This document shows positions 5,435 through 27,204 of a DNA stretch of 39,970 nucleotides, piece by piece; position 1 is the stretch's first letter; each line of letters starts with the position of its first letter. Position numbers and translations under genes: made by a program. The stretch comes from a virus. The DNA lies in the UHGV virus genome UHGV-0404708; one strand, written 5' to 3'. The notes beneath the pieces are model-generated. The model made no database searches, was not told the DNA's origin, and saw only the letters and a program-made list of their open reading frames with translations.

Positions 5435-5898
5435 TGATCTATGTTCAAATTATTCCCGCAACCGAAGAGCATCTTCAGATGATTTTGCCGGATGTTCGTC
5501 AGGCTGATATTGACGAACTGTATGCGGTATCACTGATGACTACCGAAGATGCGCTGCGTGTTGGTCTGCGTACTGCGACTATGGCCTGGTCAGGATTTGC
5601 GAACGGAGAACTGGTAACCATGTTTGGCGTATCTCCGGCGTCAATGATCGGTGGCAATGGTACGCCATGGCTGGTCGGAACCAGCCGTATTGAAAAATAT
5701 CAGAAGACATTTCTTCGCCACTGCCGACCTGTATTGCAGCAGATGCTGGCAGTTTATCCGCGCCTGGAAAACTACGTCGACGAGCGAAACCATGTTGCCA
5801 AAGCATGGCTGCACTGGCTTGGATTCAGGCTTGAAGAAGCCGCGCCTTATGGTGCTCTTGGTCTTAATTTCCACAGATTTCACATGGAGAGAAAATAA
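5434..5898 (+). CDS. hypothetical virion/assembly protein
   Basis: 154-aa ORF; TGATG overlap with upstream stop. Confidence 0.6.
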   Translation: MIYVQIIPATEEHLQMILPDVRQADIDELYAVSLMTTEDALRVGLRTATMAWSGFANGELVTMFGVSPASMIGGNGTPWLVGTSRIEKYQKTFLRHCRPVLQQMLAVYPRLENYVDERNHVAKAWLHWLGFRLEEAAPYGALGLNFHRFHMERK

Positions 5899-6443
5899 TG
5901 TGCGATCCGGTTATTGCTGGTGGCGCAATGCTCGCCATGAGTGGCATTCAGGCATACACCCAGTACCAACAGGGAAAGTATGCCTCGAAGGTTGCAGAAG
6001 CGAACGCAGATATAGCCACAGCTCAGGCAAATGATGCAATAAACAGAGGTAACGCTGAAGCTGAGCAACGGCGCAGAGAGACCCGACAGCGGCTTGGTAC
6101 ACAGGCGGCGACAATGGGGGCTACCGGCGCTGATTTATCTACAGGTAACGCGCTGGATATATTTGGCGACACTGCCCAGTTTGGCGCTCTTGATTCGCTG
6201 ACGACGGTGAATAACGCGCAACGCGAGGCTTACGGTTATCAGGTTCAGGCTGCTAACTATAAAGCAGAAGCCAGTTCAGCCCGTAAACAGGGGAATGTGG
6301 GAGCAGCAACAACATTGCTCACTGCTCCTCTGAAGGCATACGGTGCGTACCAGATGTTTGGTGGGACGTGGAGTCCGTTTACTCAAAGCACTCCTGCGCC
6401 AATCGGGGCAGCAGCAGGAACCAGATTACCCGGAGGATTATAA
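5898..6443 (+). CDS. internal virion protein (gp14-like position)
   Basis: 181 aa, Ala/Gly/Gln-rich; TAATG overlap with upstream gene. Confidence 0.55.
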   Translation: MCDPVIAGGAMLAMSGIQAYTQYQQGKYASKVAEANADIATAQANDAINRGNAEAEQRRRETRQRLGTQAATMGATGADLSTGNALDIFGDTAQFGALDSLTTVNNAQREAYGYQVQAANYKAEASSARKQGNVGAATTLLTAPLKAYGAYQMFGGTWSPFTQSTPAPIGAAAGTRLPGGL

Positions 6444-8956
6444 TGCCAGTCGTACCAACAGTATCCGGACGCCAGGTTGAGAGCCGTGGAGTTCAGTCAG
6501 CAGGCTTGCAGACGTTTTCTCAGCCAGGTATTGGTGATGCTTTTGTTCGGGCAGGGACAGAGGCAATTGATGTTTTGGGGCAGGCAAAACAGCGTGCCAA
6601 TATCGCTCTGGCTCAGGAGGCATCTCTTAACCTCAGTCAGATAAGCAGTGATCTGCTGAATAACCCTGAAACAGGTTTGCTTAACCTGAAAGGGAAAAAT
6701 GCTATTGGAAAAGGTCAGGAGTATACGCAGCAGTTTGATGCTCAGGTCGAACAACTGGCTATGTCGCTGCCGGATGAACAGGCTCGTAATGCTTTCATGC
6801 AGCAGGCGCAGCAGCAGCGCATTCAGTTCACTACGCAGGCCGGGCGGCACGAGATAGGGCAAATAAATGCCTACGAAGAAGGCCAGTTTCAGGCGACACT
6901 GCTGAACAATGGTAAAAATGCCGCAGCATTGTATGGCGACAACGCCGCATATGTATTGGCTAATAAGCAAACTTTCCAGCAAATTGAGGATTACGGCATT
7001 GCACATGGCTGGAGTGACGAGCAAATCCAGGCCAAGAAAATCGAGTTTAAAGAAGCAACAGCAAAAGCAACTGCTCAAAATGCTATTGGAGCAAACTATC
7101 TTCAGGTAAGACAGCAAAACGGCGAGTTAAGCGATACTGCTGCTGGATCTCGCCGTGCTGTAGCAGATAGTGGATCTTCCGATCGTACCCGCGGTATACG
7201 CAACAATAACCCCGGAAATCTTGAATACAGCAAAACTAATCCGTGGGTTGGGCAGACTGGTGATGATGGTCGCTTTGCCAAATTCGAAACCCCTGAACAC
7301 GGTATTCGTGCATTAGGGCGGAACCTGATGTCGTATCAGCGGCAGGGTATTGATACCGTCAGTGAGATAATTAATCGCTGGGCACCGCCCACTGATAAAA
7401 ATGACACAATGTCGTATATCAAAGCAGTGTGCGAACAACTTGGCGTTTCTGCTGATGAGCCTCTCGATGCATCTAATCCGGATACCCTGAAGGCGCTTTG
7501 TGCAGCCATTATCCATCATGAAAACGGTAGCCAGCCATACAGTGATCAGCAGTTAACTGCTGGTGTTAGTGCCGCGCTGGGGCTTTCTCAGCTACCGACA
7601 AAAAATAAACGTTATACCGGTGTAGCCTGGTTCGATGCTTTAAGTGAATCAGATCAGGCCAGCGTGTTGCGACAGACTGATGCACTAGCCAGACAACAGC
7701 AGGCTGAATATAAAACGATGCTCGACAGCCGGGTTCGCGATGCGACGGCTGCGTATATGCGTGGCGTTGAATTTCCTAACCCACCTGGTGAGGATGATTT
7801 TATTGCAGCTTATGGAGTCAGAGAAGGAAACCTGCGATATACCGAGTTTAAGAATACGCAGATCGCCGGACAGTATATAGGCTCTTTCCGCAACATGCCG
7901 ACAAGCAGCATTACAGCATATGTTGAGCAATTACGCCCGGATACTGGTGATACAGGGGATGGGTATGCGGCACGCGCAGCTCTTTATGACAACGTTGTTT
8001 CGGCTGCAAATCAGGTGATAAAGCAGCGGCAGTCGGATCCTGTGCAGTTCTCTCTTGCCTCCGGACAGGCAAAGCCTATCGACATGAGCAATAAGGATAA
8101 CTTTGGACAGAGCGTTGCCTTGCGTGCCGCTCAGGTCAGTGACCTTGCTAAGTCATATGGCACTCCACTGACGTTCTTTTCCAAAGACGAGGCCAATCAG
8201 ATCGGTGTTTTCTTTCGTGATGCTCCAGTTTCCCAACAGGCAGCATATCTCGACACCATCAGGCAGAGCACTGGTGGTGGGCAGGTGTATATGTCAGCAC
8301 TACAGCAGATCAGTGCCAACGCTCCATCTGCTGCCGTTGCCGGGATACTGATGGATAAGCCTGGTGGTATTTTGGCAGAAAAAAACTGGTTTAATCCGGA
8401 TGTTTCCGTGTCTCCTGAAACCGCTGCGCAGACAATTCTTGCTGGCGCGGCGGCTCGTAAAGGTGCTGATGATGCGAAAGGTATTCCGATGCCTAAAGAT
8501 GCTGATCTTCGCCTTGAGTTTTCTGACATGGTGAAGGATGCATTTGCTGGTGACGCTCATGGGGCATCAATGGCATACGAGATCGCAAAGGATTATTACG
8601 CTGGTGTGATGGCGAAAAAAGGCGTGGTATCAGGAGAAATTGACAATGATGTCTGGAAACAGGCTGTTAACGTAGCTACAGGTGGCGTGCATGACTATAA
8701 CGGAATGGGGAATGTCCTTTTGCCGTGGGGAATGTCTGCAGAGCAATTCGATAAGCAGGTTAATCAGGCTTGGAATGAACAAGTTGTCGGCTCCGGGATA
8801 AAAACACCGCCTGGTCAGTATGGTTTGCAAAGTTACGGCGATAGTCAGTACCTGGTGAAACTTGGTACTGGTTATCTGCTGAAAGATGATGGTTCTCCCG
8901 TTGTTCTTAATCTGACACAGAAGCGTCAGAGATTCTCCGGAGATATTCCGCAATGA
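6443..8956 (+). CDS. internal virion/core protein with possible cell-wall hydrolase domain
   Basis: Track ORF 6368..8956; ATG 6443 overlaps upstream stop (TAATG); central block with NNPGNL...WAPP motifs (about nt 7180-7560). Confidence 0.55.
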   Translation: MPVVPTVSGRQVESRGVQSAGLQTFSQPGIGDAFVRAGTEAIDVLGQAKQRANIALAQEASLNLSQISSDLLNNPETGLLNLKGKNAIGKGQEYTQQFDAQVEQLAMSLPDEQARNAFMQQAQQQRIQFTTQAGRHEIGQINAYEEGQFQATLLNNGKNAAALYGDNAAYVLANKQTFQQIEDYGIAHGWSDEQIQAKKIEFKEATAKATAQNAIGANYLQVRQQNGELSDTAAGSRRAVADSGSSDRTRGIRNNNPGNLEYSKTNPWVGQTGDDGRFAKFETPEHGIRALGRNLMSYQRQGIDTVSEIINRWAPPTDKNDTMSYIKAVCEQLGVSADEPLDASNPDTLKALCAAIIHHENGSQPYSDQQLTAGVSAALGLSQLPTKNKRYTGVAWFDALSESDQASVLRQTDALARQQQAEYKTMLDSRVRDATAAYMRGVEFPNPPGEDDFIAAYGVREGNLRYTEFKNTQIAGQYIGSFRNMPTSSITAYVEQLRPDTGDTGDGYAARAALYDNVVSAANQVIKQRQSDPVQFSLASGQAKPIDMSNKDNFGQSVALRAAQVSDLAKSYGTPLTFFSKDEANQIGVFFRDAPVSQQAAYLDTIRQSTGGGQVYMSALQQISANAPSAAVAGILMDKPGGILAEKNWFNPDVSVSPETAAQTILAGAAARKGADDAKGIPMPKDADLRLEFSDMVKDAFAGDAHGASMAYEIAKDYYAGVMAKKGVVSGEIDNDVWKQAVNVATGGVHDYNGMGNVLLPWGMSAEQFDKQVNQAWNEQVVGSGIKTPPGQYGLQSYGDSQYLVKLGTGYLLKDDGSPVVLNLTQKRQRFSGDIPQ

Positions 8957-10760: not shown

Positions 10761-13235
10761 ATGAGACAGGAATGTATACAAGCGGTCCAGCAGGCGGCGC
10801 AGCGCACGTTAACGGCGCGAGAAATACAGAACATTGAAGACCGCATTTATCGAAATATGCGCTCCATTGCTCGTGATGACCCGATGTCGTGGCGACAACT
10901 TTCCGAATCAGAGCGGCTATATCGTGCAGCACAATTGGCATCTGAAGAATTACAGCGAGAAGCGGCATTAAAGAAACGTCGTGTGGCCCTCACTATAGCC
11001 GCACGTCAGAGATTGGATAAATTTATCAATAGCTATCAAGGGTCTGATGGGAAACTTGGCGCTCTTAACCGTACTATTGCTTTTAATGCAGACGGTAAAT
11101 CGAATTTCCTCTCTGTTGAGTCCAGAACAAAAGCCACTCGTGATTATGCATTGAGTCAATTGCAAGAGGCATTTGAAGCAGTTGATCCTCGCTTTTTTGG
11201 CCTGTTTGAAGATGAAGCGGGCGTACGTGACCTGGTATATGAAATGCGGGGGCAAAATACTGGCAATGCTAAAGCAAGAAAAGGTGCTAAGGCGTGGAGA
11301 GAAGTTACAGAGCTGCTGCGCCGCCGGTTTAATGATGCTGGTGGGGACATTGGCTATCTCGAAAACTGGGGGATCCCTCAACATCATTCTATGGAAAAGG
11401 TTGGTGCGGTATCAAAAGATAAATGGGTTAGCGATGTTATAGGTAAGCTGGATCGCAAATATTATACCCGAGCCGATGGACAACTGATGAACGATGACGA
11501 GTTGTCTGCATTTCTTGGAGAGGCTTATAACACGATCGCTACAGGTGGGCTGAATAAGCTTACTGATACCGGAATGCGAATTTCCGGCGCACGTGCTAAC
11601 CGTGGTAATGCATCACGACAGATACATTTCAAAGATGCAGATTCCTATCTGCAATATCAGCAACTTTATGGCGATCGCTCTCTATGGGAAATCATGGTCG
11701 GTCACCTGGAAGGTATCAGTAAAGATATTGCACTGGTGGAAACATATGGCCCAAACCCCGATCATGTTTTCCGCTCTCTTCTTGATCAGGTGAAGGCAGA
11801 AACGGCAACAGCTAACCCGAGTAAAACCGGTAAAGTCGAGCGGCTGGCGAACAACACAGAGAATCTGTACAACTTTATTTCCGGAAAGACACAGCCTGTA
11901 GCAAATCCGCACATCGCGCGATGGTCTGACAATATCCGCAACTGGCTGGTTGCCAGCAGACTCGGATCCGCGTTGCTGTCATCGTTCTCTGATCTTGGAA
12001 CCATGTATCTGTCTGCGAAGGTGACCAACCTTCCAATGAACCAGTTATTCCGCAACCAGCTTGAAGCTATGGACCCAACGAACCGTACTGAGCTTGCGCG
12101 GGCGCGCCGCGCTGGTCTGGCGATGGGATCTCTACTTGGCAGCGTTAACCGCTGGGCGATGGATAATATGGGGCCGTCAGTGTCTCGTTGGGCGGCAACG
12201 GCGGTAATGCGTGCCAGTGGGCTTACAGCATGGTCAGATGCGCACAAGCGCGCCTATGGCGTAACCATGATGGGAAGCATGGGAGAAGTAGTGTCACGGA
12301 CACCAGACCTTCGTAGCCTCGATGACTCTGATTTTCGTATCCTGAAAAGCAAAGGGATTACTGACACAGACTGGAGCGTATGGAAGCTGGCGCAACAGGA
12401 GGACTGGGGGAACGGTAATAATACGATGCTGACACCGGAAAGCATTATGCGTATCCCTGATTCAGTAGTTAAACATCTTGGTGAGCCTGAACGCGTGAAA
12501 TTTGAGGCAATGCGTAAACTGCTCGGTGCCGTAACTGAAGAAGTTGATATGGCTGTTATTACACCGGGAGCACGTGAGCAACTGATAACCGGTTCTGGTA
12601 TTCAGCGTGGAACATGGAAAGGTGAATTAACGAGAAGTGTTTTCCTGTTTAAATCGTTCCCTATCTCGGTTGTTATGCGTCACTGGTCACGCGCTATGGG
12701 TATGCCGTCTGCTGGTGGGCGTGCGGCATATATTGCGACGTTTATTGCCAGTACGACCATTCTTGGCGCTTTGTCGCAGCAACTTAACGACCTTGCGTCT
12801 GGTCGTAATCCTCGAGAGATGACAGGAGAAGATGCCGCAAAATTCTGGCTTGGTGCTCTACTGAAAGGTGGTGGTCTTGGTCTTTACGGTGACTTTTTAT
12901 TGTCAGATCACACTAGGTACGGAAGCGGCGCGCTGGCGTCGATGCTTGGCCCGGTAGCTGGTCTGGTTGATGACGTGGTGAAGATTGCTCAGGGCATACC
13001 GTTAAATGCTGTGGAAGGGAAGAGTGAGCAGACTGGTGGTGATCTGGTGAAGCTGGGGAAAGGTTTGATGCCTGGTGCGAATCTCTGGTATTTGAAGGCG
13101 GCTCTCGATCACATGATCTTTAACCAGATGCAGGAGTATTTTTCACCAGGCTATTTGCGTAAAATGGAGCAACGTTCGAAGAAAGAGTTTAACCAGACAT
13201 ACTGGTGGCGACCTCAGGATGTCACTCCGCAATAA
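10761..13235 (+). CDS. large internal virion/core protein (gp16-like position)
   Basis: 824 aa; SD GAGAGG upstream; last gene of the co-oriented virion block. Confidence 0.55.
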   Translation: MRQECIQAVQQAAQRTLTAREIQNIEDRIYRNMRSIARDDPMSWRQLSESERLYRAAQLASEELQREAALKKRRVALTIAARQRLDKFINSYQGSDGKLGALNRTIAFNADGKSNFLSVESRTKATRDYALSQLQEAFEAVDPRFFGLFEDEAGVRDLVYEMRGQNTGNAKARKGAKAWREVTELLRRRFNDAGGDIGYLENWGIPQHHSMEKVGAVSKDKWVSDVIGKLDRKYYTRADGQLMNDDELSAFLGEAYNTIATGGLNKLTDTGMRISGARANRGNASRQIHFKDADSYLQYQQLYGDRSLWEIMVGHLEGISKDIALVETYGPNPDHVFRSLLDQVKAETATANPSKTGKVERLANNTENLYNFISGKTQPVANPHIARWSDNIRNWLVASRLGSALLSSFSDLGTMYLSAKVTNLPMNQLFRNQLEAMDPTNRTELARARRAGLAMGSLLGSVNRWAMDNMGPSVSRWAATAVMRASGLTAWSDAHKRAYGVTMMGSMGEVVSRTPDLRSLDDSDFRILKSKGITDTDWSVWKLAQQEDWGNGNNTMLTPESIMRIPDSVVKHLGEPERVKFEAMRKLLGAVTEEVDMAVITPGAREQLITGSGIQRGTWKGELTRSVFLFKSFPISVVMRHWSRAMGMPSAGGRAAYIATFIASTTILGALSQQLNDLASGRNPREMTGEDAAKFWLGALLKGGGLGLYGDFLLSDHTRYGSGALASMLGPVAGLVDDVVKIAQGIPLNAVEGKSEQTGGDLVKLGKGLMPGANLWYLKAALDHMIFNQMQEYFSPGYLRKMEQRSKKEFNQTYWWRPQDVTPQ

Positions 13236-13736: not shown

Positions 13737-13760
13737 GGCCGCTTTCGCGGCCTTGTTTTT
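13737..13760 (+). terminator. rho-independent terminator
   Basis: GGCCGC-TTTC-GCGGCC followed by TTGTTTTT. Confidence 0.7.
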
Positions 13761-13920
13761 AACGAATGCCACCGCCGCCAGGGCGGGAATCCGCAGAACG
13801 CCCACCGCAGCGGGAGCCGTCAGCGGCAGTATCGCTGTCGTGCTGACAACGACCGGCAAAGGCCTGAGTTGAAGCTACCAGAGACAACAAAACGAACAGT
13901 GCAGCAAATGCTTTTTTCAT
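13759..13920 (-). CDS. small secreted peptide (Sec-type signal peptide, 31-aa Gly/Arg/Ser-rich mature part with 2 Cys)
   Basis: ATG at 13920 (in frame within track ORF 13759..13944); n-region MKK, hydrophobic core, AFA cleavage-like motif; weak SD; higher GC than neighbours. Confidence 0.35.
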   Translation of the reverse strand: MKKAFAALFVLLSLVASTQAFAGRCQHDSDTAADGSRCGGRSADSRPGGGGIR

Positions 13921-13991: not shown

Positions 13992-14012
13992 AAAAAAGCC
14001 CGCGCTGCGGGC
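13992..14012 (-). terminator. rho-independent terminator ending the minus-strand accessory operon
   Basis: Minus sense: GCCCGC-AGC-GCGGGC followed by TTTTTT; a few nt 3' of the stop of 14018..14650. Confidence 0.65.
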
Positions 14013-14017
14013 TTCTA

Positions 14018-14650
14018 TTAATGCAGTTTATCTTTGCTTATAACCAGTAGTCTGTGGGTATGCACATCTTTATCACTGCCCCAACAGAAATCAGCCCACT
14101 GGCTATAGAAATCATCCCATGATGTCATGAAGCTAAGAGGTCTATCTTCTTCAGAGCCATCTGAAACGTATACATTATATCCTGGGGTGTTTATAGCCCA
14201 AGAAATCATTCTTTCCCAGAATCTTCTCCCATCGATTGTTTGTTGCTCATCAGATACAACGATCGCATATTGCTCTAGGAAGAACTGAAAAAAAATCTGA
14301 GGCAAACCATGAACAGCACGGTCATGAATAACATTAGGCGTACGCCATACCATGATCTGCGTACATGTTCTTTTGGCTTCGACGATATCTTCCCGAAAGA
14401 TTAACTTAACCGCATACACCGTTTCTGGAGTATCGCTGGTAGTAATCATTCTGTAATGATCGCCATTACAAGATTTTACAAGGCGATAACCATAAGGTGT
14501 TGTGAATCCCGGAAGAACGAAATCAACCACACCTTTCGCTAAGTAGCTTTCGGTGTGACTAGTGTTCTTCTCAGACATGTTCAGTTTTCTATCGAAATCT
14601 GCTTCTGGGATAATGTATGGCATCGCTTTTCTTGTTGTATTTGTTCTCAT
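14018..14650 (-). CDS. hypothetical protein (unrecognised, accessory)
   Basis: Track ORF 14018..14662; ATG 14650 preferred (SD GGAGGA 5 nt upstream); AT-rich; own operator-like site upstream. Confidence 0.7.
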   Translation of the reverse strand: MRTNTTRKAMPYIIPEADFDRKLNMSEKNTSHTESYLAKGVVDFVLPGFTTPYGYRLVKSCNGDHYRMITTSDTPETVYAVKLIFREDIVEAKRTCTQIMVWRTPNVIHDRAVHGLPQIFFQFFLEQYAIVVSDEQQTIDGRRFWERMISWAINTPGYNVYVSDGSEEDRPLSFMTSWDDFYSQWADFCWGSDKDVHTHRLLVISKDKLH

Positions 14651-14708
14651 TTCGTCCTCCATGTTTGGCTACAGGACGCGTTTTGAAGGGAAGATTAAAA
14701 ATGCTTTC

Positions 14709-14723
14709 TTACCCTTGAGGTAA
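14709..14723. promoter_or_regulatory. operator-like palindrome TTACC-N5-GGTAA
   Basis: TTACCCTTGAGGTAA, exact; upstream of 14018..14650. Confidence 0.5.
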
Positions 14724-14760
14724 TAGTACGCTATTCACCCCCAGTCTGCAATCTGTACAG

Positions 14761-14787
14761 AATTATTTAAAGGCACATCCCTGTGCC
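14761..14787 (-). terminator. possible weak terminator between accessory genes
   Basis: Minus sense GGCACA-GGGA-TGTGCC followed by TTTAAATAATT; interrupted T-run. Confidence 0.35.
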
Positions 14788-14795
14788 GCCGCCCG

Positions 14796-15515
14796 TCAGA
14801 AGAACCCTGCCTTGTCGTTGATGTACTCCGCGTGCGTCTGGATATCACGCAGGCATTTGCTCACACCGACGATGTAGCAGAACATGGTGGTCAGCTCCGC
14901 CGCCGCGCCCGATACGTCGTGCCCGTCGTCCTGTAACTGGTTCAGCAGATTCATCAGCAGTGAGTTCTCAGTCAGGCCGAGAACACCAGACGGGGAATGA
15001 ATCAGGCTGCGGTAGCCGGGCTTCAGCGGGGCACTGTATTCTTTTTTGTCTTCCAGCTTGATCGCCTCCATAATGGCGGGCATGAATTTTTCAATTACCT
15101 GAGTGGCCTTTGATAAATCAGCTCCACCTGAGAGACGAACATCTCCACTGACATTTGCGGGTTTTCTGTCGAAGTAGCAATCTTCCAGTTTTTCGAAGAC
15201 CTCCCACGCTTTTTCAGTCTCAAGAATTTTCGCATGTCGTGCTGCACCGCGAGCGGTCCATAAGAAAAGATGACTTACTTTTGGTGCAATATTAAGCAAA
15301 CCTCTTTGAGAGGACTCGTTCTTAAATGCTCGTAATTCTTCGCCTGTCAGCTTGAAACAATGTTTTCCCTCAATGAATCGATCTGCATTTCGTTGATAGT
15401 TTTGACGAATCAGTTTGGGTTCTGTGTCATACAAATCAGCAAGCATTTCTGTAGTCATTACAGGGATGTTGCAATGAGTTGTTATCGGCAACTTATCAAT
15501 AGCTATATTACGCAT
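14796..15515 (-). CDS. ORF6N-domain protein with C-terminal domain paralogous to 16329..16586 (antirepressor-like)
   Basis: Track ORF 14796..15530; ATG 15515 preferred (SD GGAGG, 8-nt overlap with upstream stop); N-terminus fits the ORF6N/KilA-N-type DNA-binding pattern; C-terminal ~60 aa align with the 85-aa protein. Confidence 0.65.
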   Translation of the reverse strand: MRNIAIDKLPITTHCNIPVMTTEMLADLYDTEPKLIRQNYQRNADRFIEGKHCFKLTGEELRAFKNESSQRGLLNIAPKVSHLFLWTARGAARHAKILETEKAWEVFEKLEDCYFDRKPANVSGDVRLSGGADLSKATQVIEKFMPAIMEAIKLEDKKEYSAPLKPGYRSLIHSPSGVLGLTENSLLMNLLNQLQDDGHDVSGAAAELTTMFCYIVGVSKCLRDIQTHAEYINDKAGFF

Positions 15516-16014
15516 TTTCATTGCCTCCATCTTTCACGACGAAATAGCAATTATCTTTATAATCTAACTGGATGAACTTTATGTTTTCAGGGAGTTTTAC
15601 AGAAAGAGTTTTTGCACAAGCAAAACCAAAATCTGCGCCAGAAGCATCCATATACCTTAATAATTGTTTTAATGCTGAAGGAGAAAAAGTATCTACCTTC
15701 ACCTCAACAGGGTAACCATCTTTTGTTTTTAGGTCTGGTTGACCTGGTCCACCAAGTATTTCAGCGTTAAGGTATTTTGCTATTTCTGGATAAGCGTTGT
15801 ATTCAGAGCGTAGTTTTGCCTTGTTATCGACTGCTAGTTGCATAAGATGATCAAACAAATTGGTATCTAAATCTGCCCCTTCATCCCACATTCTATTTCT
15901 ACAGCTAATCAATTCACTGACCAGAGGTGCACTTTCTTGCCTTAGCATAAGAAGGAGTGGAGAATTAGAAATTAACCAATACAGATCGTCGTTTGAGATT
16001 TTTTGGCCTGGCAT
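15508..16014 (-). CDS. hypothetical protein, possible PD-(D/E)xK-like motif
   Basis: 168 aa; SD AGAGGT 7 nt before ATG; segment GQPDL...YPVEVK resembles a D...E-x-K nuclease motif (weak); translationally coupled to next gene. Confidence 0.6.
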   Translation of the reverse strand: MPGQKISNDDLYWLISNSPLLLMLRQESAPLVSELISCRNRMWDEGADLDTNLFDHLMQLAVDNKAKLRSEYNAYPEIAKYLNAEILGGPGQPDLKTKDGYPVEVKVDTFSPSALKQLLRYMDASGADFGFACAKTLSVKLPENIKFIQLDYKDNCYFVVKDGGNENA

Positions 16015-16328
16015 AGCGATACCTCTACTAGTAAGTTACCCACCACCGCAACGCCAATTGCTGGTGGTGAACTGGACAAGGTTGGCGTACCGGCCTAGTA
16101 GGTACCGGCGCACCTTTCGGTGCCCCTGCCCAGCCCACCATAATTCGGATATGACTGTGCTATACGCATAAAAAAACCACGTCTGGCGTGGTATGCGCCT
16201 ACTAGTAATCCGGGACGCCAATCCCGGCACTGGATTTTGCCAGTGCCCGATTACTATGGCACAAGAGGAGTGCGATGTAAATTTACCGCAAAGGTAAATA
16301 TAAGCACTCCACTTGGTAATTGCAAACC
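16015..16328 (-). ncRNA. heavily structured intergenic element (candidate ncRNA or cis-regulatory leader)
   Basis: 314 nt without convincing ORF between two minus-strand genes; at least five stem-loops, two with identical hexaloop, one GNRA-type loop, an internal hairpin plus T7 run, 8-bp direct repeat GTACCGGC x2. Confidence 0.35.
16170..16192 (-). terminator. intrinsic terminator-like hairpin inside the structured element
   Basis: Minus sense ACCACG-CCAGA-CGTGGT followed by TTTTTTT; T-tract itself flanked by complementary CGCATA/TATGCG. Confidence 0.4.
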
Positions 16329-16586
16329 TTATATGGTTTGTTTTCGTAATTGTTCGGCACAATAGTCGAGATGTGTTTGCAGATCCCGCATAGACATCTG
16401 TGAGCTGGTGACGTAGTTAATCAGTGCAGTCAGTTCGGCAAGTGGGCCATCGACATTAAATCCATCCTTATCGAGATCCCGGAGTAATTTCATCAAGTGC
16501 GATCCCTCCACCAGTGACCTGACGCCTCCCGGCGTGTGAATCCTTTCGGTAAATCCGTCTTCCAGTGGATAGTGATACCGCTGCAT
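16329..16586 (-). CDS. small protein (85 aa), paralog of the C-terminal domain of 14796..15515; LexA-controlled
   Basis: Track ORF 16329..16604 (TTG); ATG 16586 with SD GGAG 8 nt upstream; LexA box and sigma70-like promoter immediately upstream. Confidence 0.65.
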   Translation of the reverse strand: MQRYHYPLEDGFTERIHTPGGVRSLVEGSHLMKLLRDLDKDGFNVDGPLAELTALINYVTSSQMSMRDLQTHLDYCAEQLRKQTI

Positions 16587-16607: not shown

Positions 16608-16623
16608 CTGTATAAATATACAG
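16608..16623. promoter_or_regulatory. LexA (SOS) box
   Basis: CTGTATAAATATACAG; 20-mer AACTGTATAAATATACAGTA matches the E. coli consensus TACTGTATATATATACAGTA at 18/20. Confidence 0.8.
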
Positions 16624-16632
16624 TACCAAATA

Positions 16633-16661
16633 ATTTATTGTCTATCCAGCACGTTTTGCAA
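16633..16661 (-). promoter_or_regulatory. sigma70-like promoter upstream of the LexA box
   Basis: Minus sense -35 TTGCAA (16656-16661), 17-nt spacer, -10 ATAAAT (16633-16638); LexA box starts about 9 nt downstream of -10. Confidence 0.5.
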
Positions 16662-16662
16662 A

Positions 16663-16677
16663 TCACCTGAAAGGTAA
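16663..16677. promoter_or_regulatory. operator-like palindrome (one mismatch)
   Basis: TCACCTGAAAGGTAA; abuts the -35 of the LexA-controlled promoter. Confidence 0.4.
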
Positions 16678-16781: not shown

Positions 16782-18803
16782 ATGACGGTCTCAACCGAAG
16801 TTGGCCACAACGAATACACTGGTAACGGCGTTACGACTACATTCCCTTATACATTCAGGGTTTTCGATAAATCTGATCTGGTAGTGCAGATAGTTGACCT
16901 TGAAGAGAATATCACTGTCCTGGTTCTTGATACCGATTACTCAGTAACCGGGGTGGGGGGATACAATGGTGGCAATGTAATGCTGAGGACAGCGTTAACT
17001 TCTGGTTATCGTATTTTTGTATCGCGTGAGCTGCCTGTTACGCAGGAAACAGATCTGCGCAATCAGGGAAAGTTTCTGGCAGAGGTGCATGAGGATGCAT
17101 TTGATAAGCTGACGATGCTTATTCAGCAAGTATTTTATAACCTGAGCAAGGTAATAAAAGTTCCTGAATCAGGGAACTGGTTGGTTCCAACAATTAGGTT
17201 AAGAAAGAATAAAATCTTTGCATGGGACGAAGAGGGAAATCCAATTGCTGTATCACCTGAATCAGGTAGTGCCTCCGATGTAATGATTGAGCTGGCAAAA
17301 TCATCCGGGGCTGGGTTGATTGGCACAACGTCGGGGGGGACCGTTCAATCAGTGCTGGATGACTGTCATGCAAGGCTCATCACATGTGAGCGCAACAGCC
17401 GGGTGGAAAATTTTTACACGCTGGCGGAAACCTGCACAGCGGAGCTTTTATCGCTGAATGCCCCGGAGGCATATGACAAATCCATTACGCTGACGGTCAA
17501 TGAGGAACTGACCACAGACTATACCGGTCCGGTCACAGGTCATTGCAGCATCGGTAATCCGCAGAACTACACCATTGCGATGTGTACGAGCACAACTCTG
17601 GAATATCAGGTTTCCTCGGTGGTACTGGAGAGTGACGGCACGTTCAGTTTCGCCAGAAGCTGGACGGGGGCTAAGTCTTTTAAACTGTATCGTACATCAA
17701 ATAACGGTCTGGTAACCGTCTGGGAAGATCCGCTGTGTATACGTTCTTACCGGATGCCATCGGATGCCGGAGACGAAACGGTAAGGGTAATGAAAGACCG
17801 TACGTACACCTACGACCAGGCGGTGTCGGCCATTGCCCTGATGGCGCAGGGGCACAGTCAGACTGAGCGTTTTGTTCGCGGGTTGTGTGCGATTGTGGGT
17901 AGTGGTGGTAGCGAGGGGAGTGTGCCTTTTTTCGTGAACCGCATGTCAGCGCAGACATCGTCACAGTATTACCGGACGGGAAACGCAGCGTGGGTGGCGT
18001 ATGCGCTGGCGTATTATCTGCTGAAATATCCGGACGGTGAAATGGCCGTTGTTGCCCGGGATAAACTGACGCAGTGCGCAGAATGGATTGAAACGTTCAG
18101 AGTGGCAGACAACGGAGATATTCGTTATGGGTTGTATACATCCGGTAGCGGACGGTATCTGGATGGCGTCTTTTACCCTGATTTTAAAGCAGACTGGTGC
18201 ACATCGGAGCACCAGTTTGATTTGTGGTTTCTGTTTGACCTGATGGGGCGGGTGGGCTTCACCGGCTACGCTGAAAAGGCGAAAGCCCTGGCGGATGCCA
18301 TTATGGAAAAGCTGTGGGTGGAGGATGAAGGGCGATTTTATGCCGGGATGCGAACCACCGGGCCTGACAAGGCCTCACCACTGGACTGTGCAAGCTGGGG
18401 CGGGCTGTTTGTGTCCAATATCGATATGGAAAAAGCCCGGCGGTGTTTTACTTACCTGGACAGATTCTGGTACGCCACGCACGATGCGACAGGGTACACG
18501 CCTTATCATCCGGAATATGGCTACCCGAATAAACAGCGGGGAGTCTGGGTGGAGGGCAGTGCAGGCGTGGCATTGCTGGCCCGTAGACTGGGAGATGATG
18601 CCACCGCGATGGATATTCTGGCGAGGCTGGCACCACTGCGCACACGTTATGGTTACATTGATTCAAGCGATTATCCAGATAATGATGACATGCCGCCGTG
18701 GCCCTCTTCCTGCAACACGGCCTGGATGATACTGGCATGCGATCCGCAGGGGTTCTGGAACGTTGGGGTAAGTAGTCTGTCTGGACGTTATTATAGGTAT
18801 TGA
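16782..18803 (+). CDS. tail fiber/tailspike with T7-type N-terminal attachment domain and a distinct C-terminal domain
   Basis: 673 aa; N-terminus (YTGNGVTTTFPYTF...DTDY) follows the T7 gp17 N-domain pattern; C-terminal ~380 aa Trp/Tyr-rich. Confidence 0.75.
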   Translation: MTVSTEVGHNEYTGNGVTTTFPYTFRVFDKSDLVVQIVDLEENITVLVLDTDYSVTGVGGYNGGNVMLRTALTSGYRIFVSRELPVTQETDLRNQGKFLAEVHEDAFDKLTMLIQQVFYNLSKVIKVPESGNWLVPTIRLRKNKIFAWDEEGNPIAVSPESGSASDVMIELAKSSGAGLIGTTSGGTVQSVLDDCHARLITCERNSRVENFYTLAETCTAELLSLNAPEAYDKSITLTVNEELTTDYTGPVTGHCSIGNPQNYTIAMCTSTTLEYQVSSVVLESDGTFSFARSWTGAKSFKLYRTSNNGLVTVWEDPLCIRSYRMPSDAGDETVRVMKDRTYTYDQAVSAIALMAQGHSQTERFVRGLCAIVGSGGSEGSVPFFVNRMSAQTSSQYYRTGNAAWVAYALAYYLLKYPDGEMAVVARDKLTQCAEWIETFRVADNGDIRYGLYTSGSGRYLDGVFYPDFKADWCTSEHQFDLWFLFDLMGRVGFTGYAEKAKALADAIMEKLWVEDEGRFYAGMRTTGPDKASPLDCASWGGLFVSNIDMEKARRCFTYLDRFWYATHDATGYTPYHPEYGYPNKQRGVWVEGSAGVALLARRLGDDATAMDILARLAPLRTRYGYIDSSDYPDNDDMPPWPSSCNTAWMILACDPQGFWNVGVSSLSGRYYRY

Positions 18804-26619: not shown

Positions 26620-27204
26620 TTATTGTTTGCTTTTTTCGTTCTGGTTGATGACAAATTCAATGTAACTTTCGATCTTTGCTTTCTCGGTTTCGGGTAACAA
26701 TGCGTAGCGCGAGCGGTCATAGTTGATGGTCGCAGGGTCGTGCGGGTGAATCAGTAATTCATAGCCGTGACGCCCGAATGCGGATGCAACATTCTCCAGG
26801 GTGGAAATGGAAACGCTGACCTCATTGTTTAACAGGCGGCTGATTGTCACCTGGGCGACGCCGGATGCGCGGTGAAGTTTTCCCTGCGTTGAAAGGTCGC
26901 GGCTTTCGCTCATCCAGCGTTCCAGGTTGTGAGCCGCCAGCTGACCAATGTCGCTTGGGCCGACAGGCTGAAAACCTTCCTGAGAAAGCGAGCGATCGAT
27001 ATCAAGCCAGTTACGGGGTTTATTGGCGGCAGCTTCAATTTTTCGTGCAACCTGGTCGCCGATAACCTTCTTGCCAAGAGCCCAGCGGTTTACCAGATTT
27101 GCCTGAGTTCCAAGTTTTTCTGCCATCCGCGTCTGAACACCATTGAATTCACGGTCGATCAAGTCGTTGAGATTTTGCCTGCGGACGTCCTGGATACTTT
27201 TCAT
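26620..27204 (-). CDS. immunity repressor with two HTH-type segments, no autopeptidase domain
   Basis: 194 aa; HTH-like segments near aa 24-46 and 120-155; divergent from Cro-like gene across operator region; no Ala-Gly...Ser...Lys LexA-type cleavage module. Confidence 0.7.
   Translation of the reverse strand: MKSIQDVRRQNLNDLIDREFNGVQTRMAEKLGTQANLVNRWALGKKVIGDQVARKIEAAANKPRNWLDIDRSLSQEGFQPVGPSDIGQLAAHNLERWMSESRDLSTQGKLHRASGVAQVTISRLLNNEVSVSISTLENVASAFGRHGYELLIHPHDPATINYDRSRYALLPETEKAKIESYIEFVINQNEKSKQ

Follow-up and report, generated by a model that had tools for sequence, protein, structure and literature searches.

A C4/IsrK-type RNA leader precedes a nuclease-like gene and an ORF6N antirepressor-type gene in an epsilon15/phiV10-like prophage

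Introduction

Gating of antirepressor synthesis by antisense RNAs of the C4 and IsrK families is textbook knowledge for phage P1, and its workings are also established for Gifsy-1. In the immI operon of P1 and P7 (c4 - icd - ant1/ant2), C4 blocks the ribosome-binding site of the first open reading frame (ORF) and hence the synthesis of the antirepressor (PMC12197685, PMC8201110). In Gifsy-1, which carries the isrK-orf45-anrP arrangement, antirepressor synthesis requires the translation of a leader ORF (PMC4825925). A third point of reference is the Uetakevirus group, where ORF4 of phage vB_EcoP_ZX5 (ZX5) pushes the phage towards lysis (PMC9782041). Here we analyze UHGV virus genome UHGV-0404708, a stretch of 39,970 nucleotides (hereafter the window) that corresponds to an Escherichia coli Uetakevirus (epsilon15/phiV10-like) prophage, with megablast matches to phiV10, phiv142-3, TL-2011b and ZX5. 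We focus on three of its genes, ORF-A, ORF-B and ORF-C, and on the RNA leader that precedes them.

All three genes are encoded on the minus strand. ORF-A (15508..16014) specifies a protein of 168 amino acids (aa) with a predicted PD-(D/E)xK nuclease fold of the RecB/Cas4/NucS-like type, and occupies the slot held by icd or orf45 in the systems above. ORF-B (14796..15515) specifies a 239-aa ORF6N-domain protein of antirepressor type with a Uetakevirus-specific C-terminal domain, and ORF-C (14018..14650) a 210-aa protein that folds like a GNAT (GCN5-related N-acetyltransferase) and comes from an orphan family of 'phage proteins' in Enterobacterales. An earlier note on this DNA had rightly described three co-oriented genes spanning 14018-16014, and had regarded them as a single accessory module of uncertain role.

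We consider it likely that ORF-A and ORF-B form an antisense-RNA-gated antirepressor operon of the P1 immI or Gifsy-1 isrK type, and that ORF-C is unrelated cargo. In the literature that we searched, we found no description of a C4/IsrK-gated antirepressor in the epsilon15/phiV10 group. In this group, such gating comes together with a LexA box and with operators dispersed in a network. The new element is the nature of the C4-controlled gene, which belongs to a conserved and unannotated nuclease-like family found repeatedly, in proteobacterial phages, beside or fused to Rha, ORF6N or Bro-N 'antirepressor' genes.

Results and discussion

A C4/IsrK leader in front of ORF-A

The 315-nucleotide (nt) gap between an upstream 85-aa gene and ORF-A holds structured RNAs at 16060-16259, on which the earlier note was silent. 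They lie on the minus strand in the canonical order: a c4-a1b1 element (16259..16207; Rfam RF03163, 45.1 bits for a gathering cutoff of 46.7, E 2e-9), an IsrK-like RNA (16246..16170; isrK RF01394, 68.1 bits, gathering cutoff 50, E 1e-13) and a C4 antisense RNA (16060..16145; RF01695, 76.7 bits, gathering cutoff 45, E 2e-14, full length 1-87). The IsrK-like/c4-a1b1 element as a whole (16170..16259) contains the upstream target copies b1 (UUGGCGU, 16221-16215) and a1 (CUAGUAGG, 16205-16198), and ends in an intrinsic terminator detected by the terminator scan (16192..16176, followed by a T7 run). C4 in turn exposes two loops, a' (CCUACUAG, 16102-16095) and b' (ACGCCAA, 16088-16082), each of which is complementary to one target on either side of C4. 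Loop a' can pair with a1 and with CUAGUAG(A)GG at 16031-16022, in the Shine-Dalgarno region of ORF-A; loop b' can pair with b1 and with a second UUGGCGU, b2, at 16057-16051. The complete downstream target a2, CUAGUAG(A)GGUAUCG (16031-16017), covers the ORF-A Shine-Dalgarno sequence GAGG (16025-16022).

These pairings are maintained in evolution. We aligned the window with prophages of Klebsiella, Enterobacter and Salmonella and with phiv142-3, TL-2011b and phiV10, and observed a three-way covariation of a1/a'/a2 and of b1/b'/b2: across 7 relatives, four a-types and two b-types are found, each altered in all three copies. The relation was then sought in 115 non-redundant C4 loci, obtained by a pattern scan of IMG/VR for the invariant C4 5' end and completed with further C4-bearing loci. 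At least two separate perfect complementarities of at least 6 nt between the C4 loops and the downstream leader were present in 103 of the 115 loci, against 22 of 115 in a control where C4 loops were confronted with the leader of another locus. Loop sequences are highly diverse (32 a-words and 12 b-words in 48 combinations), and the distal target ends at most 15 nt from the start codon of the first gene in 92 of 102 loci. Pairing, covariation and the C4 survey argue that the RNA switch is functional and general, and that ORF-A would be its controlled cistron in this phage.

The first genes that follow C4 (n=107) mostly encode antirepressor-type proteins or short ORFs: Rha-like proteins (30, assigned by reading of the sequence), Bro-N proteins (21), ORF6N proteins (16) and ORFs of 63-82 aa (21) form the main clusters. 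We also considered an orf45-like upstream ORF starting from the invariant ATG at the C4 5' end. This candidate was rejected, as its length ranges from 3 to more than 200 codons with no fixed end; unlike in Gifsy-1, such an ORF is not conserved in this clade. In the relatives from Enterobacter and Salmonella (L006, L009, ~5874-6504), the ATG shares the reading frame of ORF-A, giving 209-210 codons in all; it is out of frame in the window and in the Klebsiella relative.

Entry of transcription and operator sites

Transcription of the region can be expected to start from two promoters. The first, of SOS type (TAGACA-18-TATATT, 16644..16615, minus strand), stands in front of the 85-aa gene (16329..16586, minus strand; a homologue of epsilon15 gp19 and PhiV10p24, phrog_450), which is the first gene after a perfect LexA box (CTGTATAAATATACAG, 16608..16623) that overlaps the promoter's -10. 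The box is conserved as CTGT-N8-ACAG in six of eight related loci, and carries one mismatch in the other two. The earlier note had placed the block downstream of this promoter, which is not simply the case: an intrinsic terminator, a second, operator-controlled promoter and the C4/IsrK switch intervene before ORF-A. This second promoter (16283..16325, minus strand; -35 TTGCAA at 16325, 17-nt spacer, -10 TATATT ending at 16297) is located just before the IsrK-like element, and the last base of its -10 is overlapped by an operator palindrome, TTACCGCAAAGGTAA (16283-16297), which is invariant in 7 aligned relatives and occupies the same position in all Uetakevirus-type loci.

Similar sites accompany the other promoters. 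An operator-like site with one mismatch, at 16663..16677, lies upstream of the SOS promoter; relatives have a perfect copy in the equivalent place. A third promoter (14709..14751, minus strand; -35 TTGCAG 14751-14746, 17-nt spacer, -10 TACTAT 14728-14723) precedes ORF-C and carries a further palindrome, TTACCCTTGAGGTAA (14709-14723), whose register matches that at the second promoter. Operators occur at the same three relative positions in every related locus, the third always preceding the cargo of the last slot.

The underlying motif, TTACC-N5-GGTAA, is present in 15 copies in the window, nine of them perfect, versus 0.7 expected by chance. The copies extend over 14709-37136 and start at 14709, 16283, 16663, 17969, 20958, 26486, 26548, 27260, 27308, 27645, 29584, 29646, 33962, 33980 and 37122. 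They cluster between the gene of a candidate prophage repressor (26620-27204, minus strand, 194 aa) and a cro-like gene. Other copies are scattered before early, integrase and late-region genes. This distribution looks like a dispersed operator network reminiscent of that of P1 C1, here in a podovirus, and the candidate repressor may be the protein that binds the palindrome. It has two HTH domains (YdaS-like and HTH_3) and lacks the S24 peptidase domain responsible for self-cleavage, which makes induction via antirepressors plausible; its composition fits this route, not RecA-stimulated self-cleavage.

Since all three genes stand behind promoters with operator motifs, the prediction is that none of them is expressed in the lysogen. 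A classical moron, to whose usual position the earlier note had pointed, would behave in the opposite way. Genes repressed in the lysogen would be neither morons nor defence genes, and a probable mis-annotation is corrected here. The same observation weighs on another scenario, that ORF-A and ORF-B, with or without ORF-C, provide anti-phage defence or superinfection exclusion, with the ORF6N protein as a DNA-binding sensor and the PD-(D/E)xK protein as an effector nuclease acting against incoming phage DNA or abortively. ORF-B does match PADLOC candidate models of the PDC-S05 type (E 1e-9 to 1e-4), ORF-A has a conserved nuclease motif, a distant relative of ORF-A occurs on its own at a tail-lysis moron site, under an RHH regulator, and YafO toxins also turn up in the slot, a mosaic hot spot. 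However, the PDC-S05 matches span the generic ORF6N domain only, and neither ORF-A nor ORF-C has any match in PADLOC-DB v2. A defence gene must be available in the lysogen, whereas expression here would be blocked at three levels that are all 'off' in that state: the LexA box, the operator palindrome and C4 on the Shine-Dalgarno sequence. Moreover, in relatives this slot and this RNA leader serve genes that are annotated as antirepressors or proven to be such (PMC9782041). We regard a defence function as improbable, and positive evidence emerged for none of the defence, superinfection-exclusion and toxin-antitoxin options that the earlier note had listed.

ORF-B and the proposed switch

ORF-B is recognized by the Pfam ORF6N model (PF10543, E 6.5e-20, 71.7 bits for a cutoff of 27.8) and by phrog_1760, annotated 'anti-repressor' (E 1e-97). 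It is composite: its ORF6N half resembles Ant proteins of Stx phages, and its C-terminal ~100 aa are common to the Bro-N antirepressors of phiV10-type phages. The product of the 85-aa gene is related to this same part, with 43% identity to ORF-B residues 158-231 over 74 aa (BLASTP, E 4e-16). The domain common to the two proteins is likely the repressor-binding part. An antirepressor activity of ORF-B is suggested by its position and by analogy with ZX5 ORF4, the positional Bro-N homologue, whose overexpression lowers the lysogen titre ~1000-fold (PMC9782041). A single phage would then hold two differently regulated copies of the putative repressor-binding domain, one in the LexA-controlled stand-alone 85-aa paralogue and the other in C4-controlled ORF-B.

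ORF-B starts at ATG 15515, 8 nt downstream of a GGAGG Shine-Dalgarno sequence, and overlaps the end of ORF-A by 8 nt (ATGCGTAA), as the earlier note had stated. The conservation of this overlap suggests that antirepressor synthesis depends on the leader ORF as in Gifsy-1.

We propose that transcription enters from the LexA-controlled promoter, through the 85-aa gene, and from the second promoter with its prophage operator palindrome. Most transcripts would end at the IsrK-like terminator, and read-through would carry transcription across C4 and then ORF-A and ORF-B. Loops a' and b' of C4 would bind a2 and b2, in cis or on a different transcript, and mask the ribosome-binding site of ORF-A, while the a1/b1 copies of the IsrK-like RNA would compete for C4. 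The direct effect of C4 would be limited to ORF-A, and ORF-B would be made by translational coupling via the 8-nt overlap, as in icd-ant of P1 and orf45-anrP of Gifsy-1; published precedents exist for both control and coupling (PMC8201110, PMC12197685, PMC4825925), and in this phage the two are predicted from the position of a2 and from the overlap. ORF-B would presumably inactivate the 194-aa two-HTH repressor via the C-terminal domain that it has in common with the 85-aa SOS protein. ORF-A would be more than a mere leader, namely a conserved PD-(D/E)xK enzyme released only when the switch opens. ORF-C would constitute a separate unit, expressed on derepression. Comparison with relatives and described systems lends good support to the regulatory part of this model.

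Comparison with described antirepressor operons

With the immI operon of P1 and P7, the locus has in common a C4-family RNA placed between upstream a1/b1 and downstream a2/b2 copies, an a2 target over the ribosome-binding site of the first ORF, a first ORF that overlaps the antirepressor gene, and a promoter with an operator of the main repressor (here predicted from the motif). The loop-target specificity types that differ between relatives also recall the heteroimmunity of P1 and P7. The differences lie in the proteins and in the context: the first ORF specifies a 168-aa PD-(D/E)xK protein here, whereas that of P1 is the 73-aa cell-division inhibitor Icd; the antirepressor combines ORF6N with the Uetakevirus-specific C-terminal domain; a LexA-controlled promoter and gene are directly upstream; and the prophage is an integrated podovirus, not a plasmid.

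Gifsy-1 (PMC4825925) is matched by an IsrK-family RNA with its own terminator and a read-through mRNA that would be translationally inactive, by a stable processed RNA downstream of IsrK (STnc1160 there, C4 by prediction here), and by a first ORF coupled to the antirepressor, a coupling that the overlap suggests in our case. The output of the Gifsy-1 system is the AntQ antiterminator. Its orf45 comprises 45 codons and specifies a non-conserved peptide, in contrast to ORF-A and its conserved, enzyme-like product.

The closest arrangement is that of the Uetakevirus Bro-N antirepressors, PhiV10p23 and ZX5 ORF4, which occupy the same slot, follow the same 85-aa gene and the same IsrK and C4 leader, and end in the same C-terminal domain. 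Here, however, the N-terminal domain of the antirepressor is ORF6N, and ORF-A separates C4 from the antirepressor gene. Both ORF-A and the ORF6N half of ORF-B have a low G+C content, which suggests that they were imported jointly.

ORF-A, a nuclease-like protein

A possible D...E-x-K motif had been noticed in ORF-A before; it is real, and stronger than stated. Residues E71, P93-D94, E104-x-K106 and Q117-x-x-R120-Y121 are invariant or nearly so in relatives down to 27% identity, and the pattern D..ExK..Qxx[RK]Y is kept in 143 of 160 family members. The remote-homology check that the earlier note had advised gave matches of the ORF-A domain profile to Cas4 (4r5q, E 1.3e-5) and NucS (2vld, E 3e-3), in both of which E...PD...ExK...QxxxY are aligned; distant family members reach Pfam NucS_C, and the predicted secondary structure is alpha-beta-beta-beta-alpha-beta. 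Unlike in Cas4, no Cys is invariant in the family alignment, so that there is no conserved four-cysteine Fe-S cluster; unlike NucS, ORF-A lacks the NucS N-terminal domain; and its three-helix N-terminus is specific to the family. Models of Pfam, NCBIfam and PADLOC do not match ORF-A, and PHROGs returns 'unknown function' families only. Judging by its motifs, ORF-A belongs to an unannotated PD-(D/E)xK family with RecB/Cas4/NucS-like features and is most likely a Mg-dependent nuclease.

Close homologues of ORF-A fall into 11 clusters, all enterobacterial, and an exhaustive profile search extends the family to 304 representative-cluster matches at E up to 1e-3. A tblastn search of 50,697 phage records yielded no match at E up to 0.01, and a literature search by RefSeq protein accessions retrieved nothing. 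The ORF-A/ORF6N pair is conserved together with the 8-nt overlap and a ~313-nt RNA leader in prophages of Klebsiella, Enterobacter and Salmonella and in a 48%-identity relative. At 30-40% identity, relatives are found between a C4 RNA, which they follow immediately, and a Rha gene (L023, L024). Another directly follows an sRNA-Xcc1 element and adjoins a Rha gene (L026). In L022, behind an Arc-like gene, the relative overlaps a Rha gene at its end, and fusions to Bro-N or Rha domains also exist in the family. Two of these loci (L023, 3882-4736; L024, 1264-2118) display tandem C4-type RNAs: the ORF-A-like gene is preceded by an Rfam C4, and the Rha gene that comes next by an sRNA-Xcc1.

These data bear on the view that ORF-A is a translated leader devoid of a function of its own, as proposed for Gifsy-1 orf45, whose translation would merely open the ribosome-binding site of ORF-B and prevent Rho termination. 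In its favour, other C4 loci hold short unrelated ORFs of 63-82 aa, or nothing, at the position of ORF-A; orf45 is conserved as a nucleotide sequence and not as a peptide (PMC12197685); and the coupling geometry is conserved. A mere leader, however, is hard to reconcile with a 168-aa product under purifying selection (dN/dS 0.07-0.29 against relatives, compared with 0.08-0.14 for ORF-B), with the invariance of its E, D, ExK and QxxRY residues at 27% identity, with the size of the family, or with its presence in other arrangements, such as downstream of Rha, fused to Bro-N or as a stand-alone gene. We consider this view very unlikely to be correct. ORF-A is better described, from its sequence and position, as a rare, large and enzyme-like occupant of the icd/orf45 position.

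Several observations weigh against the proposed operon. The c4-a1b1 element scores 1.6 bits under its gathering cutoff. C4 processing, termination at IsrK, coupling and antirepressor activity are each carried over from P1, Gifsy-1 or ZX5 to this phage by analogy. ORF-A homologues account for six of the 107 first genes after C4, only one of the six stemming from the unbiased sample; because most C4 switches work without ORF-A, its role would be an accessory one. Finally, a distant relative of Firmicute type stands alone by a divergent RHH regulator, with no antirepressor nearby and no Rfam RNA in its vicinity, which indicates that the ORF-A protein can act on its own. A universal link between the ORF-A family and antirepressors was rejected on account of this relative.

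If ORF-A is active, some antirepressor operons deliver an enzyme along with a regulator at induction. This would change the annotation of common prophage modules, as well as models of how DNA-damaging antibiotics trigger induction through the SOS response in clinical E. coli, Klebsiella and Salmonella. A bolder idea, which we put forward as speculative and rather doubtful, is that the ORF-A family constitutes an unrecognized enzymatic third component of immI-type modules: a nuclease silenced by C4-type RNAs, by Arc/RHH regulators or by fusion to Bro-N or Rha, and fired with the antirepressor, so that its cut makes the lytic decision irreversible. Were this true, the cut could damage host DNA, reinforcing the SOS signal, or destroy a competing heteroimmune genome, and antirepressor modules would be 'switch plus executioner' units instead of pure regulators.

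ORF-C, a separate cargo gene

As the earlier note had reported, a weak terminator and an operator-like site separate ORF-B from the 210-aa gene, which has its own operator, the palindrome at 14709-14723. The terminator is a hairpin at 14787..14772 (14761..14787 with its tail, minus strand), GGCACA-GGGA-TGTGCC followed by the A/T-rich TTTAAATAATT; it is too weak to be listed by the terminator scan and was read directly from the sequence. ORF-C is closed by a strong intrinsic terminator (13992..14012, minus strand; GCCCGC-AGC-GCGGGC-TTTTTT, with a 6-bp GC stem, a 3-nt loop and T6), also seen by reading the sequence and absent from the scan output. Among 5,426 complete E. coli genomes, ORF-A is present in 22 and ORF-C in 93, and all three genes occur together in two. 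ORF-C is independent of ORF-A and ORF-B: its distribution and its own promoter, operator and terminator rule it out as a member of the antirepressor operon. Of the single three-gene induction-accessory module proposed earlier, the antirepressor-accessory option suits ORF-A and ORF-B, but does not extend to ORF-C.

Pfam, NCBIfam (GNAT models included) and PADLOC gave no match to ORF-C, no PDB sequence matched, PHROGs returned 'unknown function' only, and a profile search of 5.8 billion proteins found only unnamed Enterobacterales relatives. These are 'phage proteins' of 200-215 aa, without names or domains, distributed across Enterobacterales. Structure was more informative: the AlphaFold model (pLDDT 80, pTM 0.76) has a GNAT-like fold, and Foldseek against viral models matched it to uncharacterized phage proteins (E 1e-10) and to NAT_SF proteins (E 8e-6), the second outcome of the remote-homology check. 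In contrast to the GNAT superfamily, the model has extra helices between the N-terminal sheet and beta4, and the family has invariant residues of its own, C96-T-Q and H197-x-H199-R-L. The acyl-CoA signature Q/RxxGxG/A is degenerate, the loop reading QQTIDGRR. ORF-C is probably an acyl-CoA-dependent acyltransferase, a divergent protein of GNAT fold.

A toxin-antitoxin system, with ORF-A as toxin nuclease and ORF-B as antitoxin, or with ORF-C as a GNAT toxin of the TacT/AtaT type, could be imagined from the two-gene overlap and from the YafO toxin in the third slot of relatives, but is the least probable reading, as no toxin-antitoxin family of Pfam, NCBIfam or PADLOC is matched, ORF-B is a 239-aa two-domain protein of antirepressor type and not an antitoxin, and many non-toxin GNATs resemble ORF-C about as closely as the toxin does, or more closely. 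ORF-C is also solitary throughout and lacks a small partner gene, whether its surroundings are of Uetakevirus, siphovirus, lambdoid or chromosomal type.

The solitary state of ORF-C homologues, with no adjacent small antitoxin gene, holds in every context examined: Serratia siphovirus prophages, by P22-type Ant/Arc genes; the end of lambdoid phage LLS; chromosomal islands; and the Uetakevirus third slot, where ORF-C follows Ant, Bro-N or ORF6N variants alike. Conversely, the third slot of ORF-A/ORF-B relatives contains the YafO toxin, DUF2335 or other genes. The sequences indicate that this slot is a hot spot for repressor-controlled cargo. Operator-controlled cargo observed there (L004, L006, L009, L030) includes a YafO-family toxin with a small upstream ORF, a 66-aa ORF, a set of 105, 170 and 243 aa, and DUF2335. 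In LLS (PQ299149, L029), an 84%-identical ORF-C cassette lies after the lysis genes at 42053-42772 and retains the Uetakevirus-type -10 and operator. LLS has no other perfect copy of the palindrome, so that ORF-C may be constitutive in this phage.

Gene layout and mosaicism of the slot

The block lies, as first described, between the last virion gene (10761-13235, plus strand, specifying an 824-aa protein) and the tail-fibre gene (16782-18803, plus strand). In the phiV10, phiv142-3, TL-2011b and ZX5 group, the same slot is variable and mosaic. It contains the 85-aa gene, various small genes and an 'antirepressor' whose type differs from genome to genome, and all of these run opposite to the virion genes. 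Parts of the 2.2-kb block are matched in 485 of the 5,426 E. coli genomes and the entire block in two, which again shows the slot to be mosaic. The low G+C content noted before is confirmed (42.8% for the block versus 49.3% for the window), though it is patchy: 37.7% for ORF-A, 41.1% for the ORF6N half of ORF-B, 53.6% for its C-terminal half and 40.8% for ORF-C.

The starts of the three genes agree with PGAP and with gene calls in relatives; that of ORF-C is the fifth codon of a 214-aa ORF. For ORF-C, dS is saturated against relatives, with dN of 0.11-0.56. By these substitution patterns, ORF-A, ORF-B and ORF-C are genuine coding genes under purifying selection.

Next to the block, a gene for a 53-aa protein (13759-13920, minus strand) has a signal-peptide-like N-terminus and its own sigma-70-like promoter (TTGACG, 13960-13955) without operator, and is kept in relatives as a 162-nt coding sequence. 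It is more likely than the three genes of the block to be a moron expressed in the lysogen.

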